Below are positions 2,887-57,252 of a DNA stretch of 59,681 nucleotides, piece by piece; position 1 is the first letter of the stretch, and each line of letters begins with the position of its first letter. Under the pieces are notes generated by a model that made no database searches, had not been told where the DNA came from, and worked only from the letters and a program-made list of their open reading frames with translations. The position numbers were made by a program, and so were the translations under genes. The DNA comes from an uncultured Thermoplasmata archaeon (lineage in GTDB: Archaea; Thermoplasmatota; Thermoplasmata; Halarchaeoplasmatales; Halarchaeoplasmataceae), in the NCBI GenBank assembly GCA_964535805.1, contig CAZHUM010000004.1:1-59681 (forward strand). The letters run 5' to 3'.

Positions 2887-4077
2887 TTAATATGTATTTA
2901 AGTAGTCCTTAACCCCTTTTTCAATGTTAAATCTTTTCTCCCAAATAGCTCTTGACACCTCACCCATGCTTTTCAAATCGTGCTCATCCAAAAACTTTCT
3001 CAATAATTCATCCAGTTTACTAATCTTATCAACAGGAAAAGTTCCACCGTTCACACCATCTTTAACTAACTCTGGAACTCCACCAACATCCGAAGCGAAT
3101 ACAGGCAACCCGAAGCACATCGCTTCCAATACCGTCAAAGGACAGTTTTCCCATAAAGTAGGTAAAATAAACAGATCTGAAATCCAATACAAACTGTACA
3201 ATTTCTTTGAAAAACTCGGTAAGAAACCTAGATGTTTTACATTCTCTAAAGACCTTCCCTCCATCAAATTATCCCTGTCTTCACCGACCAGTAAGAAAAA
3301 GCAGTCTTTGAACCGTTCAGAAGCATCGATCAACCTATCCACACCTTTTTCCCTTTTCAAGTGCCCTACGTACAATACAACTTTTTTACCATTAGGTATC
3401 CCGAGTTTCTTTTTGATCCTATCCTTCTTAACAAAATCAAATCTCTGTTTCCAATCGAAAGTAAAGTTGTAGATCACTTCATTTGATGGCAGACCACCTC
3501 CGAAGAAATCCAAAAATAATTTTTGATAAAATTTACTGGGAAACACCAGTTTATCAATATAATCCACATACTCCCTTGGAAATGAAATCGGTAATTTATA
3601 GCGATTGTACTTACAGCCAAAACAATTTTTTCTACAATCTTCAGCGTATCTATATCTAAAAGGGCATATCAACCAATTATCGTGTACGGTCATCACTATA
3701 GGAACATCAATACGCATACGTAATTTTTTTAAAAATTTTATACCAAATGAAGAAAAATTGTGTAGATGGATGACATCCGGATCCATCTCCTCGATCTTAT
3801 TCAATTCATCGTGATTAGAAGTCACATAACCAATATTATTCATAAGTAATTTAACAAAATTATAGTCAGCAAATCTTACGTTCACACCGTTCAACCGGTA
3901 CTCCTCTTTTTCAATTATCTCCTTTCCAGTTACGAATGAATATGCATAAGGATTCGTAAGAACATCAACATCCCACCCATCATCAACCAGTCCCTCAGAC
4001 AATGTCCTACAGAATACAGCATCTCCGCCTAAAAAGTCCGGCGGATACTGGTTTGAAATCATCAAAACATTCTTCAA
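2887..4077 (-). CDS. Glycosyltransferase family 4 (GT-B fold)
   Basis: C-terminal EX7E-type motif ENCPLTVLEAMCFGLPVFASDVGGVPELV. 4-nt overlap with the upstream radical SAM gene. Confidence 0.85.
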   Translation of the reverse strand: MKNVLMISNQYPPDFLGGDAVFCRTLSEGLVDDGWDVDVLTNPYAYSFVTGKEIIEKEEYRLNGVNVRFADYNFVKLLMNNIGYVTSNHDELNKIEEMDPDVIHLHNFSSFGIKFLKKLRMRIDVPIVMTVHDNWLICPFRYRYAEDCRKNCFGCKYNRYKLPISFPREYVDYIDKLVFPSKFYQKLFLDFFGGGLPSNEVIYNFTFDWKQRFDFVKKDRIKKKLGIPNGKKVVLYVGHLKREKGVDRLIDASERFKDCFFLLVGEDRDNLMEGRSLENVKHLGFLPSFSKKLYSLYWISDLFILPTLWENCPLTVLEAMCFGLPVFASDVGGVPELVKDGVNGGTFPVDKISKLDELLRKFLDEHDLKSMGEVSRAIWEKRFNIEKGVKDYLNTY

Positions 4078-20879: not shown

Positions 20880-21191
20880 TTAAAAACCTTTTGAATTGTC
20901 GGGGGGATATTTCTTCTCATTCTTCTCTATTTTCTTTCTGACTGCATCACCAAGATCTACATCAGTTACATCCGCGAGAGAAAGTAGATATATCAATATG
21001 TCAGCCATCTCATCCTTCAATTCTTCTATATCCACATCACAGTCAGATGATTTCCATTGAAACAATTCTAAGAGCTCCGCTGATTCGATTGATATCGATA
21101 TACTGATGTCTTTTGGATTATGGTACTTCTTCCAATCCCTTCGATCCCTAAAATCAACAACTAAGTCCTGCAATATTTTTAGATCAGTCAT
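20880..21191 (-). CDS. MazG-like nucleotide pyrophosphohydrolase
   Basis: FRDRRDWKKYHNPKDISISISIESAELLELFQW...EMADILIYLLSLAD (EExxE/D all-alpha NTP-PPase pattern). Confidence 0.8.
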   Translation of the reverse strand: MTDLKILQDLVVDFRDRRDWKKYHNPKDISISISIESAELLELFQWKSSDCDVDIEELKDEMADILIYLLSLADVTDVDLGDAVRKKIEKNEKKYPPDNSKGF

Positions 21192-21241
21192 AGATCAAAA
21201 TATAGAAGTAAAATATATGTAATTTATTAATCAAAATGATG

Positions 21242-21283
21242 AAAAAGGGGTTGGATCGTCAGAGGGGGTTGGAGATTCCCTCT
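21242..21283 (-). terminator. Candidate terminator after albA: 6-bp hairpin followed by a T5 run
   Basis: Minus strand reads AGAGGG-aatctccaacc-CCCTCT overlapping the albA stop, then CCAACCCCTTTTTC. Confidence 0.3.
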
Positions 21284-21563
21284 ATTCTTCTAATTTCATC
21301 GTGATTTCCATCGAAGAAACGTTGGTTGTTCCTTCTCCTCCCTCTCTTTCTAACTGTTCAGTGTCCGTTTTTATGTCGATTATATCCGATGTAGGCACGA
21401 ACCGATTTTTTGTTATCTCAGCGACATCCACTGCCTTGCTTATAGCTCTTCCTCGTGCTTTGATAACAACTTCATCAGATCCGCTGTTGAATTGTGTAAC
21501 AACAGCCATCACGTAGTTCATGGTTTCTTTCTTTCCGATATACACTGTATTTTCATCATCCAT
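21282..21563 (-). CDS. albA: Chromatin/RNA-binding protein Alba
   Basis: [21 protein letters not shown]...[25 protein letters not shown] lies 8 nt upstream of the ATG. Confidence 0.95.
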
Positions 21564-21613
21564 AGTTTTTGCCTCCTGACTAGTTTTATTGGGTTTTGAT
21601 GTAGTAAATATCG

Positions 21614-21626
21614 GTATATAATATTT
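21614..21626 (-). promoter_or_regulatory. TATA-like box upstream of albA
   Basis: Minus strand AAAATATTATATACC, about 55 nt upstream of ATG 21563. Confidence 0.3.
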
Positions 21627-21641
21627 TGGATAACTATTATG

Positions 21642-21649
21642 AAAAAAAA
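21642..21649 (-). terminator. Oligo-T (T8) run, likely the end of the S24e-S27ae-tRNA-Arg transcription unit
   Basis: A8 on the plus strand equals T8 on the minus strand. It is the first long T run after the tRNA and its trailer. Confidence 0.4.
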
Positions 21650-21955
21650 TTTGTTTAATTAATCAGAAATTTGTAAACGGACCAACCAAAATTCCTGACG
21701 GATTTTCCTCGCCTTTTAATCATAGATTAAAAGACTCGCCGGGATTTCGGAAACCTGTTTGCGAGATAAGGCGATGAAGTGAGCAAAGCGAGCTGATTCG
21801 CCGGGATGTTGAAAACTTGCTTTTCAACATTAGGCGAGGGAGCGAGTGGAACGAGCGGACTCGTCAGAAATCACAGATTTCTAACTGCCCGTTTTTCGGA
21901 GAAAAACGGACTCCACAAAATGCTATCACATTTTCCTCGTTCGCCAAAATAAATT
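21650..21955 (-). repeat. Degenerate tandem modules carrying tRNA-Arg 3'-end copies plus A/T-rich hairpins (tRNA trailer)
   Basis: tRNA 3'-end copies at 21733-21750 (18/19 vs 21961-21979) and 21795-21807 (12/13). GGACTCG/C recurs at 21857 and 21908. Hairpins at 21714-21732, 21808-21828, 21866-21882, 21890-21908, 21917-21934 and 21942-21960. Confidence 0.7.
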
Positions 21956-22090
21956 TGGCGGACTCGCCGGGAATTTCGGTCGAATTGTGGCCAACCCGAT
22001 TTTCGAACCCGGGATCGGGGCTCCGGAAGCCCCAGTGATATCCATTGTAGCCCGCCTACAGCTGTAAACGGGTAGCTACACTACGAGCCC
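21956..22090 (-). tRNA. tRNA-Arg (anticodon CCG) with two 29-nt non-canonical introns (22045-22073 in the D-loop, 21973-22001 in the T-loop); CCA encoded
   Basis: Hand-folded cloverleaf after removing both introns: GGGCTCG/CGAGTCC acceptor, anticodon arm GGGGC-TTCCGGA-GCCCC, T arm CCGGG-TTCGAAT-CCCGG. Both introns are bounded by bulge-helix-bulge motifs. Confidence 0.75.
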
Positions 22091-22100
22091 AAAACAGTTA

Positions 22101-22253
22101 TTATTTATTCTTAAATTCCGTGTACCCACATTTACCGCAGGAAACCCTGTCTTTATGTACGGCTAAAAATACGCCCTCACCACATTTAGGACAGTTTCTT
22201 CTCTTCCTTTTTAATTCTCCGTTCTCCACTTCATAGATATCGATTTTACTCAC
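22101..22253 (-). CDS. rps27ae: Ribosomal protein S27ae (eS31), 50 aa; below the ORF-track length cutoff
   Basis: Manual translation gives [50 protein letters not shown] (CPxC...CGxC zinc ribbon). The GTG start overlaps the S24e stop; an alternative GTG lies at 22262. Confidence 0.8.
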
Positions 22254-22554
22254 TTTTTTCACCCCCGGTCAATCCATTTCTCTCCAGTATATGCTTCGAT
22301 TCGTATTCATAGGCATCTTCTTTATTTTCATATAGTTTGACTTCAACTACAGATTCGTCTTTACCATATGTTGATTTGATACTCTGGATGATCACTTTGC
22401 CCTTCGCGAAACCGGTCAGATCTGCCACTCTGTTCCTAACTGTTTTTCTGTCAGGTGTGGAAATACCTTCGTGATATAATCTTACAGTGAGTTCTCTCCG
22501 ATTGAACAATTTGTTTTCCTTTTCATTCTCGATTTCCAATTCCATTTCCGCCAT
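22246..22554 (-). CDS. rps24e: Ribosomal protein S24e (eS24)
   Basis: [33 protein letters not shown]... Confidence 0.95.
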
Positions 22555-22563
22555 CTTATCAAC

Positions 22564-23079
22564 CTACTTCACTTTTTTCATCTTATTTATTACTTGCCAA
22601 GATTTTTTCTTGATTTTATCATTTACTACATTAACAACCATGCCTTCAGAAGGTATCCCATATATTACTATTCCGTTTTTAGGACATAATATAATACATA
22701 CGAGCGAAAGCATATCTTCCTCGCCATCCACTTTTATAAGAACTTTCTCATCGTTATCGATCGCTTCTTTTATTTTTTTCCAAGTTAACTGGTTAATGTA
22801 TCCTGCGGGATTTTCTAACTCTATGATTTCAACATCCGGCAATTTACCGATCGAATAATCTCCCCTCCTAGTCTTTCCGTCTATGATTGCTACATCGGGA
22901 ACTATTCCCTGTTCTAGTAAAGTATGAGTCACGTAGTCACCGACCGTAATTAACGGGCGAAAATCCAGATATCTCTCCGGTAGGTCTCCTTTGACGATCT
23001 CACCTAAGATATCACGTAAGATAAATCGGTCCTCATCTGGTAATTTAAGGTCTGTGTCTGGGATCTTACTTTCGTTCAT
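22564..23079 (-). CDS. DUF359 protein / GTP-dependent dephospho-CoA kinase
   Basis: ITVGDYVTHTLLEQGIVPDVAIIDGKTRRG motif. Conserved archaeal position between spt4 and rps24e. Confidence 0.8.
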   Translation of the reverse strand: MNESKIPDTDLKLPDEDRFILRDILGEIVKGDLPERYLDFRPLITVGDYVTHTLLEQGIVPDVAIIDGKTRRGDYSIGKLPDVEIIELENPAGYINQLTWKKIKEAIDNDEKVLIKVDGEEDMLSLVCIILCPKNGIVIYGIPSEGMVVNVVNDKIKKKSWQVINKMKKVK

Positions 23080-50855: not shown

Positions 50856-52291
50856 GCGATTACAGACAGGCGAGATATGAGAAGCATCTGCTTCTTGAAG
50901 AACACGCTGTTGAGAGGGAAATAGAAGATAACCCGCTTCCAGATAAGATAAGCAGAAAGAAGGCTCCCATGATACCGGACATACCGGAGTACGAGGTCGT
51001 AAGGCACTATACACGACTATCTCAGATGAACTACGGAGTAGATTCCGGGTTCTATCCATTGGGTTCATGCACCATGAAATTCAATCCCAAATACTCGGAA
51101 CTTCTAGCCGGGGAAAAAGAGTCCATAGATATACATCCATATCAACCGGAAAATACCATCCAGGGCACGATGCAGATAATGTACGAACTGCAGAATTTCT
51201 TGGCTGAGATCGGAGGCATGGACGCTGTCACGTTACAGCCTGGAGCCGGGGCTCACGGGGAGATAACGGGTCTGATGATAGTTAACGAGTATCACAAGAG
51301 GAACGGCGACGAAGGAAGGAACGAGATCGTGCTGCCGGATACATCTCACGGAACGAACCCTGCCAGTGCAGCCATGCTCGGATACCGCACCGTGGAGATA
51401 CCATCCAACGAAGGTTGTGTGGATCTAAAAGCACTCCAGGAATCCGTTTCTGATAAGACCGCTGCTTTCATGCTGACAAATCCGAATACGCTAGGTCTTT
51501 TCGAAGAAGACGTTTGTGAGATAGCTGACATCGTGCACGAAGCCGGTGGGTTGCTCTACTATGACGGAGCAAACTTGAACGCTATCATGGGTAAGACCAA
51601 CCCTGGAATGATGAACTTCGATATCATGCACTTCAACCTTCATAAAACCTTCAGCACTCCACACGGTGGAGGCGGACCCGGGGCTGGACCGGTGGGCGTG
51701 GTAGAGAAACTGCGTTCTTACCTACCGACTCCGATAGTTTCTAAAGATGATGGACGATACTATCTAGACTACGATCTGGAAAATTCGATCGGTCGTGTGA
51801 AAGGATTCCACGGCAGCTGGATCGTGCTGCTCAAGGCTTACTGCTATATATTGAGGAACGGGGGGCCAGGTTTGACTTCCGCTTCTGAAAGGGCCGTGTT
51901 GAACAGCAACTATCTCAGAAGTAAGCTGGAGAAGATACTCGATATGCCCTATAAGTCACTAAAAAAGCACGAATTCGTCCTCTCTGGCAAGTGCATGAGG
52001 GATAAAGGAGTGAAAACCGTGGATATCGCTAAGCGGCTGCTGGATTACGGACAGCATGCACCTACGGTTTATTTTCCTCTCATAGTTGAAGAAGCGCTGA
52101 TGATAGAGCCTACGGAAACAGAAAGAAAGGAAACGCTGGACGCCTTTGCAGAGATCATGGAAACGATCGTGAACGAAGATCCAGAACTCCTTAAGAACGC
52201 TCCGCAGAATACGGCAGTGAAAAGAGTGGATGAAACCAGAGCGGTCAAAAATCCGGTTTTGAGCTATAAGATGAGGGATGAAGATGGATAA
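50852..52291 (+). CDS. gcvPB: Glycine dehydrogenase (decarboxylating) subunit 2
   Basis: LGSCTMKFNPK and HFNLHKTFSTPHGGGGPGAGPVGV (PLP-Lys). 4-nt overlap with gcvPA. Confidence 0.95.
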   Translation: MSDYRQARYEKHLLLEEHAVEREIEDNPLPDKISRKKAPMIPDIPEYEVVRHYTRLSQMNYGVDSGFYPLGSCTMKFNPKYSELLAGEKESIDIHPYQPENTIQGTMQIMYELQNFLAEIGGMDAVTLQPGAGAHGEITGLMIVNEYHKRNGDEGRNEIVLPDTSHGTNPASAAMLGYRTVEIPSNEGCVDLKALQESVSDKTAAFMLTNPNTLGLFEEDVCEIADIVHEAGGLLYYDGANLNAIMGKTNPGMMNFDIMHFNLHKTFSTPHGGGGPGAGPVGVVEKLRSYLPTPIVSKDDGRYYLDYDLENSIGRVKGFHGSWIVLLKAYCYILRNGGPGLTSASERAVLNSNYLRSKLEKILDMPYKSLKKHEFVLSGKCMRDKGVKTVDIAKRLLDYGQHAPTVYFPLIVEEALMIEPTETERKETLDAFAEIMETIVNEDPELLKNAPQNTAVKRVDETRAVKNPVLSYKMRDEDG

Positions 52292-56498: not shown

Positions 56499-56525
56499 CT
56501 CAAAATATTTATTAACTAGTTTTAA

Positions 56526-56555
56526 TTTTTATTTTCGCAGGCTCAAAGAAAAAAT
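56526..56555. repeat. Direct repeat copy 1 (30 nt; 27/30 identical to 56891-56920)
   Basis: TTTTTATTTTCGCAGGCTCAAAGAAAAAAT compared with TTTTTCTTTTCGCAAGCTCAAAGAAGAAAT. Confidence 0.8.
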
Positions 56556-56890
56556 TACCCCTTTCAATAATTTCATCCGCTCCGCTACTGAAATAATTGA
56601 ATGCTACCGGACTATCGTCCACCCACTTTTATTTCATCAAAGATAAAATAATGATCGAAGAACAATTCCCACTTTCACTCGTTCAAAGAACTCATGATCT
56701 TCAGGAACACGGTGTGTTCCTTCGATTTTCAATATCTTCCACCCTGTTTCAGATATGTGAAAATCCGCAGGAACTCGCTACACTCGCTCCTCCTACTTTT
56801 TTACTTCCCTCACTGCGCTCGTGAAGAAGTAATCCTTCTTATACTTCGAGCAAAGCTCTCGTACACGGAGGAACAAGTTCCTCCTATCCA

Positions 56891-56920
56891 TTTTTCTTTT
56901 CGCAAGCTCAAAGAAGAAAT
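56891..56920. repeat. Direct repeat copy 2, immediately 3' of tRNA-Leu (minus-strand pyrimidine-rich hairpin, possible terminator)
   Basis: Minus strand reads TTTCTTCTTT-GAGCTTGCG-AAAAGAAAAA, starting 4 nt after the tRNA discriminator. Confidence 0.8.
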
Positions 56921-56923
56921 GAA

Positions 56924-57008
56924 TGCGAGGGAAGGGATTTGAACCCTCGGACACCTACGTGACAGGATCTTAAGTCCTGCGCCTTTGGCCATGCTTGGCT
57001 ACCCTCGC
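56924..57008 (-). tRNA. tRNA-Leu (anticodon UAA), 85 nt, long variable arm, no intron, CCA not encoded
   Basis: Minus strand: GCGAGGG-TA-GCC..GGC-G-CAGGA-CTTAAGA-TCCTG-TCACGTAGGTGTCC-GAGGG-TTCAAAT-CCCTT-CCCTCGC-A. Confidence 0.95.
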
Positions 57009-57046
57009 TTTAGGAGCGAAAGAATTGAGCGGATAAAGGGAGAGTG

Positions 57047-57080
57047 AGGAGGAATTTATAATTCCTGCGCTACCCTCGCA
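57047..57080 (-). pseudogene. tRNA-Leu-like mini-copy (acceptor 5' strand plus anticodon-arm-like hairpin, D-arm deleted) about 40 nt upstream of tRNA-Leu
   Basis: Minus strand reads GCGAGGGTA|GCGCAGGA-ATTATAA-ATTCCT, versus GCGAGGGTA[GCCAAGCATGGCCAAAG]GCGCAGGA-CTTAAGA-TCCTG in the tRNA. Confidence 0.5.
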
Positions 57081-57252
57081 ATTTGGAGTGAGCTTATGCG
57101 AATTTCGAGAGTGTTTTGGGTGCTTTGCTCCCGATTGCCACTCGCTGTGAGAAAATGCCTGGCATTTTATTGCTGCGAATCCGCTCTTTCAATCGAAATC
57201 TGTAAATCCACTATCATATAAAAGTTTGATTGTCCTGGTCAATAAGTATCAT

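Follow-up and report, generated by a model that had tools for sequence, protein, structure and literature searches.

In a 59.7-kb stretch of contig CAZHUM010000004.1 (GCA_964535805.1; hereafter the window, or W), the ~310-nt trailer between a tRNA-Arg(CCG) gene and the promoter of alba consists of five modules, each closed by a copy of the tRNA 3′ end. These modules look like undescribed miniature mobile inserts, not like one RNA gene or chance repeats. The minus-strand gene order is RpoE′–Spt4–DUF359–S24e–S27ae–tRNA-Arg(CCG)–~310 non-coding nt–alba promoter–alba, and the neighbors annotated with Pfam within ~4 kb are RpoE′, Spt4, DUF359, S24e, S27ae, Alba, MazG-like, RIO1, and KH. The source lineage is an uncultured hypersaline Thermoplasmata archaeon. 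Its closest public loci belong to Thermoplasmata/Thermoplasmatota metagenome-assembled genomes, the relatives of its Alba protein include organisms named Ca. Natronoplasma and Ca. Saliniplasma, and the metagenome runs that contain the window sequence are of microbial-mat, salt-pan, and salt-lake origin.

The tRNA-Arg(CCG) gene starts 10 nt past the S27ae stop codon and occupies 22090–21959 on the minus strand (tRNA nucleotides 1–73). Two 29-nt introns interrupt it, one in the D-loop (22045–22073) and one in the T-loop (21973–22001), the latter followed by the 3′ exon (21959–21972). Neither ARAGORN nor Rfam detected the unspliced gene; once both introns were taken out in silico, ARAGORN called a standard tRNA-Arg(ccg). 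The T-loop intron of W, like that of seven relatives, adopts a bulge-helix-bulge-like fold (T-stem, 3-nt bulge, UUCG:CGAA helix, 4-nt bulge, and intron helix), with compensatory changes within the intron helix. At the far end of the modules, a distal trailer (21642–21677, minus strand) ends in the T8 run at 21642–21649 that an earlier note on this DNA had pointed out; it is presumed to be the displaced original trailer with its terminator, and the TATA-like box of alba (21613–21627) lies beyond it. The array is contained in one clean 17.5-kb unitig (depth 12–20) in three independent runs of one mat study, so the arrangement is not an assembly artefact.

Anatomy of the module array

In W, the modules follow the tRNA on the minus strand in the order tRNA-D′-A-B-C-D; such inserts are 44–63 nt long and contain no open reading frame (ORF). 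D′, A, and D are two-hairpin units (U units) of 44–57 nt, bounded by 5–8-nt tail copies (GAGTCCG) and composed of a first hairpin (hp1), a 1–6-nt linker, a second hairpin (hp2), 2–4 nt, and the 5–8-nt copy of the tRNA end. B and C, which are paralogues of each other, instead combine a pyrimidine box and a hairpin or hairpin remnant with a 15–19-nt tRNA copy that possibly reaches ~25 nt, from the T-loop to the 3′ end, and that opens exactly at the T-loop intron/exon border.

The hp1 is a near-perfect palindrome whose sequence is unrelated from unit to unit, and its stem always takes in the last 3–5 nt of the preceding tail copy, pairing GTCCG with a CGGGC-like word. The earlier note had seen a covariation-like pattern in this first hairpin; the stems are better described as unrelated palindromes, each completed by the end of the tail copy before it. 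The hp2, by comparison, has a consensus, (G/A)GAAAW..WTTTC(T/G).

Nearest to the tRNA lies D′ (21907–21958, 52 nt), which begins with CCA. Its hp1 (21942–21960) takes in the last CG of the tRNA, hp2 occupies 21917–21934, and the terminal copy GGAGTCCG lies at 21907–21914; against R1, a covariance model built from the right halves of units, it scores 38.1 bits (E = 4e-8). Module A (21856–21906, 51 nt) has its hp1 at 21887–21911, where the preceding GTCCG is paired with an internal CGGGC, its hp2 at 21863–21885 (GTTAGAAATCTGTGATTTCTGAC), and the terminal copy CGAGTCCG; its fold is stable (dG −24.3, z −4.8) and its R1 score is 53.1 bits. The third unit, D (21678–21732, 55 nt; hp1 21711–21735, hp2 21687–21707), ends in GGTCCG (21678–21683) and scores 39.4 bits. 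Between A and D, module B (21793–21855, 63 nt) consists of a box termed B5′ (21833–21855), a hairpin (21806–21830), and a 15-nt stretch copied from the 3′ exon of the tRNA and now decayed (ATCCCGGCGAATCAG, 21793–21807), and module C (21733–21792, 60 nt) of a B5′-like box (21770–21792) and the tail copy CCGAAATCCCGGCGAGTC (21733–21750). The boxes read CTCGTTCCACTCGCTCCCTCGCC in B and CTCGCTTTGCTCACTTCATCGCC in C, and B-type boxes have the form CTCGCT..CTCGCC.

Several of these repeats had been noticed before, and that description was confirmed, each feature being present where stated. The tRNA end at 21961–21979 (ccgaaattcccggcgagtc) and the copy at 21733–21750 (ccgaaatcccggcgagtc) agree in 18 of 19 positions, with a 1-nt deletion, and the acceptor-complement heptamer recurs as CGAGTCC/GGAGTCC at 21857–21863 and 21908–21914. 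Hairpins are likewise present at 21806–21830, 21863–21885, and 21887–21911, and homologous units do stand behind tail copies (copies 0 and 2). The copy at 21795–21807 (atcccggcgaatc) exists as claimed, but with 11 of 13 identical positions, not 12. That the 21733–21750 copy covers the last 7 nt of the intron is one reading of it; alternatively, what B and C contain may be copies of the T-loop without its intron, together with the 3′ end. A search for TCCCGGCGAGTCCG with ≤3 mismatches returned four matches inside 240 nt of the trailer and six more in the 59.7 kb, all scattered and with 3 mismatches, a total of 10 that none of 100 shuffles produced.

The right halves of 17 units align as one family. 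Their hp2 helix is 88.9% paired, compared with 68.7% in shuffles, and shows 29 double-sided changes against 10.6 in shuffles, a count reached in 0 of 500 shuffles and far above that of slid controls. In 17 of 18 units the sense strand folds more stably than the antisense strand (G-U pairs 32 vs 7), so it is on the tRNA-sense strand that folding counts, whether of RNA or of single-stranded DNA. Types of hp1 and hp2 assort independently, so the two halves of a unit are exchangeable, and the linker between them stays at 1–6 nt, which argues for a defined entity and not a random deletion product.

Within the window, R1 recovers A, D, and D′ plus one weak match behind the tRNA-Leu gene, the only extra below E 0.1; this match aside, neither BLAST nor R1 found dispersed copies elsewhere in the 59.7 kb. 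R1 added nothing new in 89 kb of relatives' loci, and an extra match in one of them (L116, 10735–10781), with no tRNA nearby, was treated as noise.

Variation among relatives and units behind other tRNA genes

We gathered ~15 orthologous loci via S24e and Alba (L-numbers denote relatives' loci, mostly short metagenome contigs); the relatives analyzed came from the Alba search, and the search for S24e homologues gave no match besides the query itself. Gene order and the two-intron tRNA are kept in all of them, as is the promoter-proximal sequence of alba, but the trailer differs and the array is not conserved. Five loci (L010–L014) have no module, and in this empty site the trailer reads GAGTCCG|CTTTTTG and reaches alba within ~100 nt. 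L015 and L009 lack a tail copy and contain a B box with its hairpin, or decayed remains; L019 has B with a decayed tail copy; and L020 has B and one unit. One unit is present in L001 and in L017 (= L174, L177), three in L116, and a unit, a long B-like stretch, and another unit in L003. Module B itself was found in L002, L005, L019, and L020.

The salt-pan strain L005 has S24e and Alba proteins identical to those of W, yet its order is tRNA-B-D′-A-(3′ part of D), without C. D′ is 100% identical between the two strains and occupies a different array position, and only the 3′ part of D is kept in L005, fused to A at a 4-nt microhomology. The L005 joints relative to W share 9, 9, and 4 nt, placing two of the three breakpoints inside the repeated (C)GAGTCCG(C). 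Each order recurs across runs, that of W in the three mat runs and that of L005 in two runs of one salt-pan sample. A CCA follows the discriminator base of tRNA-Arg directly in W (21956–21958), yet it is part of D′; in L005 the same CCA comes after the distal tail copy, not after the tRNA. Since it sits with D′ in both strains, the apparent genomically encoded CCA is supplied by the insert. The 3′ exon of L005 itself (TTCCAGGCGAGTCCG, 3580–3592, equivalent to window position 21969) has a G-A mismatch in the T-stem (CCAGG), whereas the distal copy, behind B, is perfect and is the one that pairs with the tRNA body in the RNAfold structure.

A second comparison concerns the tRNA itself. L002 (3974–4174) and L017 (1686–2000) encode the same S24e protein and agree fully in the 5′ part of the tRNA gene, D-loop intron included. 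From the T-loop intron onward they are unrelated, as are their trailers. The 3′ part of the tRNA, with its intron, appears to have been swapped in an attL-like manner, as expected if an incoming element had replaced it.

Units also stand behind other tRNA genes. A metagenome scan with the A-type hp2 gave four relevant contigs (L116, L128, L106, and L109) among the matches listed, and homologues of module A occur in L003, L018, L106, L116, L128, L109, and the Haloterrigena plasmid pHTUR01. In L128 a tRNA-Arg(TCT) gene is followed by three units and in L106 by one. The closing repeat follows the host: units in L106, L128, and L018 end in GCGTCCG, the tail of tRNA-Arg(TCT), and those behind tRNA-Arg(CCG) in W, L017, L116, L020, and L003 end in GAGTCCG. 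In 12 of 15 units the terminal repeat equals the end of the host tRNA. L018 was used only together with L106 and L128: its positions 1–385 (JGI Ga0102935_1112356, 946 nt) have the Alba protein and promoter of L017, but upstream stands tRNA-Arg(TCT) with two units, which may mean that the chromosome was rearranged at two tRNA trailers or that the contig is chimeric.

The most distant case is L109, a contig of 55% GC with haloarchaeal-type proteins. Behind its tRNA-Asn gene lie a 115-nt module with the B box in inverse orientation and, after it, an 18-nt copy of tRNA-Asn (T-loop to 3′ end). Its unit is identical to W unit A in 41 of 44 positions (23 of the 26 positions outside the search pattern agree) and ends in CGGCG, the tRNA-Asn tail.

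Parts of two modules recur in haloarchaeal plasmids. In a plasmid collection, the A-unit core matched Haloterrigena turkmenica pHTUR01 in 28 of 29 positions (225621–225680; L165 2476–2535). There, the palindrome at the left end of an ISHmu6-like IS200/IS605 remnant is interrupted at its apex by a ~49-nt insertion (TCAGAACACGCTGCCTTCTGCTTGGCAGTCAGAAATCTGTGATTTCTGA), which contains an A-type hairpin. The limits of the insertion follow from an alignment with the homologous sequence immediately 5′ of IS200/IS605 tnpA genes in three further plasmids of haloarchaea, and it is missing from most of the corresponding left ends in 38 haloarchaeal plasmids. When compared with one complete ISHmu6-like element by blastn-short, the Arg and Leu trailers gave no significant match; the pHTUR01 insertion is the only link to IS605. 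The B5′ box of W is identical in 23 of 23 positions to a site in a Haloarcula halophila plasmid (NZ_CP119561.1, ~50941–50987; L166 2484–2530), where a tRNA-Arg 3′ exon-like word (TTCCGGCGAGTCC) is followed 8 nt on by the B5′ match. This site lies just downstream of parA, a hypothetical gene, and copG, with no integrase annotated within 15 kb. A second place in the same plasmid was also reported.

The sequence of the window organism occurs in no RNA run. Salt-lake metatranscriptome contigs of relatives cover the unspliced T-arm region together with 16 nt of the B box (depth 16–21), and others span tRNA-106 nt-tail copy-D′, D′-D′, and an A followed by a D-type unit (depth 3–8). These contigs, which are unstranded, come from relatives only, and may include DNA carry-over, are weak evidence that the pre-tRNA trailer includes the arrays.

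Proposed insertion and its rivals

The modules are optional, strain-variable, bounded by copies of the host tRNA, and shared across archaeal classes, and are thus better explained as DNA-level insertions than as a conserved RNA gene or chance. With moderate confidence, we read them as miniature elements that are non-autonomous, target the 3′ ends of tRNAs, and were inserted serially. They would have been added one by one at the 3′ end of tRNA-Arg(CCG), each recombination re-creating the tRNA end and leaving a second copy at the far side of the insert. The U units may be moved in trans by a recombinase acting on a folded single strand, with a crossover or target of ~7 nt, a scheme akin to integron attC sites, integrative mobile elements exploiting Xer (IMEX), or IS200/IS605 elements. 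B and C, which have the classical geometry of integrase att duplications, would be remains of tRNA-integrating elements. Recombination between tail copies could then have altered the order of the array. The modules would ride passively in the pre-tRNA 3′ trailer, the T-rich starts of units serving as terminators.

As at integrase attachment sites, the inserts are flanked by a direct repeat of the tRNA's 3′ portion, the tRNA beside them is intact (functional in silico), and some relatives have the empty site. The earlier note had offered att-site scars as one of two explanations. An integration-type origin at the DNA level is supported by the optional, reshuffled modules and their host-matched repeats, but "scar" is too passive a term for the two-hairpin units, because these form a defined ~50-nt family with a 1–6-nt linker and reach 41/44 identity in another archaeal class. 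The integrase-bearing element with a flanking copy that the note named as confirmation of scars was not found.

A number of results weigh against serial insertion. Pfam searches identified no recombinase, integrase, or transposase gene within ~4 kb on either side, and no full-length element with the unit ends was found, including at this site in ~15 relatives. No IMG/VR or INPHARED virus carries the hairpins or the att word beyond chance. The U units lack terminal inverted repeats, and they have a flank repeat, although IS200/IS605 elements and palindrome-associated transposable elements (PATEs) should have none. At 44–57 bp they are too small to circularise as duplex DNA, which makes a classical integrase cycle unlikely for them. 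Three of the 15 terminal heptamers differ from the host tRNA (TTGTCCG in L003 and L018, ACGTCCG in L128), and the internal CGGGC of the L109 unit cannot pair with its tRNA-Asn flank. Finally, covariation and transcription would fit a functional RNA equally well.

Further sequence scans gave nothing beyond chance. The tRNA core 36-mer had no match in viral contigs or JGI metagenome contigs, viral scans returned no A-type or D-type hairpin, and B5′ boxes gave nothing or GC-rich chance matches. The 24 viral matches to ATCCCGGCGAGTCCGY all fall within GC-rich phage coding DNA and are attributed to chance, and BLAST against INPHARED phages gave no match.

The modules were also compared with several known element classes. 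A miniature inverted-repeat transposable element does not fit, the unit ends not being inverted repeats and a flank repeat being present. PATEs have a fixed 4–6-nt target and a terminal oligonucleotide of their own, but the terminal 5–8 nt of the units repeat the end of the host tRNA and change with it (GAGTCCG, GCGTCCG, CGGCG), and the palindromes showed no IS605-type likeness to the ISHmu6-like element, the one family compared. An integron cassette would call for an intI gene beside the landing site and an ORF cargo, and neither is present. Casposons have terminal inverted repeats and a Cas1 casposase, both absent here, and only the repeat length of B and C agrees with them. For a tRNA-integrating mobile genetic element, an integrase gene is missing inside the inserts and among the neighbors within ~4 kb.

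A bolder form of the insertion reading, which we regard as tentative and on the unlikely side, takes the U units as a new class of ~50-nt mobile elements, widespread in Thermoplasmata, Halobacteria, and perhaps DPANN archaea. In folded, single-stranded form they would seek out the terminal nucleotides of tRNA genes as well as other DNA able to form hairpins; a guide-like internal word, CGGGC, would pair with the target GTCCG, and each insertion would regenerate the tRNA end. The outcome would be cargo-less, integron-like arrays, and the process could also seed non-canonical tRNA introns such as the T-loop intron.

The strongest competitor to insertion of miniature elements starts from B and C, whose 15–19-nt copies from the T-loop to the 3′ end have textbook att geometry. 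The modules could be passive scars, the fused ends of a full-size virus or plasmid with a tyrosine integrase whose body was deleted, with nothing moving at the 50-nt scale. The 18-nt tRNA-Asn copy adjoining the unit in L109, the divergence of L002 and L017 from the T-loop onward (as in attL replacement), and the attP-like order of a tRNA-Arg-tail-like word and B5′ box in the Haloarcula plasmid all agree with this, and in Haloquadratum, IS605-type elements have repeatedly been cut to 52-bp terminal-only forms through loss of their core between repeats (PMC3119063). Independent random deletions would, however, not be expected to leave a 1–6-nt linker in 17 of 17 units and a constant unit length. 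Moreover, the ~15 relatives yielded no full-length element at the site, the viral collections searched yielded no attP, and the 7-nt repeats are shorter than usual att identities. We consider deletion scars unlikely as an account of the whole array, but they remain a substantial rival, above all for B and C.

The covariation of hp2 and the more stable, G-U-rich sense folds would also suit a functional RNA, co-transcribed with the tRNA and released by tRNA-processing enzymes in the manner of RtT, or acting as processing or termination punctuation that separates the r-protein/tRNA transcript from alba. The acceptor-strand mimic that closes each unit and the metatranscriptome contigs of relatives spanning pre-tRNA and B5′ (depth 16–21) or unit arrays (depth 3–8) point the same way. 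This was the second option of the earlier note, and hp2 covariation, strand-asymmetric folds, and arrays in RNA libraries are compatible with it, but the modules are absent or reordered among relatives, even between strains, and are not tied to one tRNA or neighbor gene. The hp1 would sequester the tRNA's own 3′ end and thereby hinder tRNA folding, and the RNA contigs carry the strand, source, and carry-over limits given above. Rfam offers no match, RtT and C/D-box families included: cmscan over 21000–22600 with E up to 5 gave three chance-level matches, none of them RtT. A C/D-box sRNA fused to the tRNA was rejected, no unit having a C box (RUGAUGA) and Rfam giving no match. Covariation, strand asymmetry, and presence in RNA libraries are equally expected of a mobile element that acts as a folded single strand within a tRNA trailer, and a functional RNA appears improbable to us.

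The tail copies of B and C start exactly where the T-loop intron gives way to the exon, which raises a further idea, that they are spare 3′ exons: the splicing endonuclease would join the tRNA body to a downstream copy, the module becoming a longer T-loop intron (intron birth or exon back-up). The mismatched proximal exon of L005 (CCAGG), its perfect copy behind B, and the minimum free energy fold that pairs the body with this distal copy are in keeping with it, and B of L002 and C of W keep UGAA/CGAA, a 2–3-nt bulge, and CCCGG, compatible with the 3′ half of a bulge-helix-bulge. Most copies, on the other hand, are decayed (CGAATCAG in B of W) or lack a partner for the 4-bp helix (CAACAT in B of W, L019, and L020). 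The 5–8 nt of acceptor strand in U units cannot complete a T-stem, and no spliced joint appears in the RNA contigs of relatives, leaving this explanation very improbable.

The least probable account, local slippage or unequal crossing-over from one ancestral trailer without insertion or mobility, could account for the different orders in W and L005 through three unequal exchanges at repeats of 4–9 nt and would explain C as a paralogue of B, but it already seems contradicted, unless contigs are chimeric, by units with matching flank repeats behind tRNA-Arg(TCT) and tRNA-Asn and by the 41/44 identity to another archaeal class, and the unit hairpin in the IS end of a haloarchaeal plasmid also stands against it.

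Relation to known systems

Ends of tRNA genes are classic landing sites for viruses and plasmids, and the usual reports concern kilobase elements with integrases. The present locus points to a far smaller layer of traffic, in which ~50-nt gene-less modules stack, shuffle, and cross archaeal classes while the tRNA is always restored. The modules resemble the att duplications left by tRNA-integrating archaeal elements with SSV-, pNOB8-, pTN3-, and SNJ2-type tyrosine integrases, and the tandem accretion or cis-mobilizable remnants (CIMEs) of such elements, in that a repeat of the tRNA 3′ part brackets the insert with the tRNA intact, copies run from the T-loop (B, C, L109), arrays form at one tRNA, and a strain breakpoint lies at the T-loop. 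They differ in being 44–63 nt long and gene-less, in the 5–8-nt repeats of the U units, in their conserved internal architecture, and in that neither an integrase nor an attP-bearing replicon was found.

Three other systems come close to the U units, which resemble PATE/SMR elements, attC cassettes, and RtT but do not have the defining features of any of them. In E. coli, the RtT repeats of tyrT (RF00391) are 178-nt tandem units behind a tRNA, each with a copy of the tRNA 3′ end, that are co-transcribed and of obscure function. The arrays share with RtT the tandem units and 3′-end copies; unlike RtT, the units of W are heterogeneous, hairpin-based, and horizontally shared among tRNAs and taxa, with no Rfam match. 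Integrons are bacterial, and we know of no archaeal integron with such sites. As in integron arrays, the modules form a series at one landing site whose order differs between strains; each boundary has a ~7-nt core behind an imperfect hairpin on one strand, and CGGGC is complementary to GTCCG, a resemblance only. Unlike integrons, these arrays have no integrase gene beside them, use the end of a tRNA as landing site, and consist of "cassettes" that lack ORFs.

The terminal-only PATEs and small mobile repeats (SMRs) of Haloquadratum walsbyi and other haloarchaea are ~50-bp, palindromic, strain-specific elements without a transposase of their own, and SMR-A elements insert into IS605-type end palindromes by a mobilisation called enigmatic (PMC3119063). 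The likeness extends to hypersaline archaea as hosts, the ~50-bp size, the palindromes, and the lack of a transposase, and the A-type hairpin in the pHTUR01 palindrome resembles SMR-A. The U units, however, repeat the host tRNA end and sit behind tRNAs, whereas PATEs and SMRs are dispersed and cause no target duplication; the palindromes of PATEs are rich in GC, with just one in the 52-bp form, and the units have no similarity to the ISHmu6-like element. Casposons of Aciduliprofundum and Methanosarcina insert at tRNA 3′ ends with a 14–15-bp target duplication (PMC4779613), a target in Thermoplasmatota/Euryarchaeota and a duplication length similar to those of B and C; the modules lack their terminal inverted repeats, casposase, and polymerase and are ~100 times smaller.

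If the units move by themselves, few known site-specific mobile elements would be smaller, and the enzyme moving them would define a new hairpin-guided targeting system. The locus also bears on the origin of non-canonical archaeal tRNA introns, given that copies begin at the intron/exon border and that one strain (L005) seems to hold a better spare exon than its own, and on why tRNA flanks are recombination hot spots. At a practical level, such arrays confuse tRNA annotation, as the gene missed by ARAGORN and Rfam illustrates, and supply markers for distinguishing strains of uncultured halophilic Thermoplasmata.

Besides tRNA-Arg, a single tRNA was detected in the window, tRNA-Leu(TAA) (57008–56924, minus strand), and it also has unusual flanks. 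Upstream lie an exact 11-nt copy of its own 5′ end (GCGAGGGTAGC, ~57069–57079) and then a hairpin (AGGAATTATAAATTCCT). Its 360-nt trailer (region 56499–57100) is hairpin-rich, with a 30-nt direct repeat, a degenerate 5′-end copy (GCGAGTGTAGCGAG), and an inverted 3′-end fragment (GAGGGAAG). The weak R1 match corresponds to a candidate unit-like double hairpin 27 nt downstream of this tRNA (56860–56897, minus strand; 19.8 bits, E = 0.005), behind which there is no clear tRNA-Leu tail copy.

The 18-nt hp2 core GAAATCTNTGATTTCTGAC had at least 120 metagenome matches, most of which belong to a different, widespread two-hairpin palindromic repeat of the form ..GTCA[stem-loop]TGA(G/T)CATG(C/A)TCA[GAAATC..GATTTC]TGACAT. 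It occurs in JGI/ENA freshwater-sediment and groundwater contigs (L021–L140; e.g. L099 3567–7650, L031, and L088). L099 has four copies, each in the same position within a dockerin-like repeat gene, and some copies of this repeat adjoin tRNA-like sequence (L024, L045, L046, and L119).

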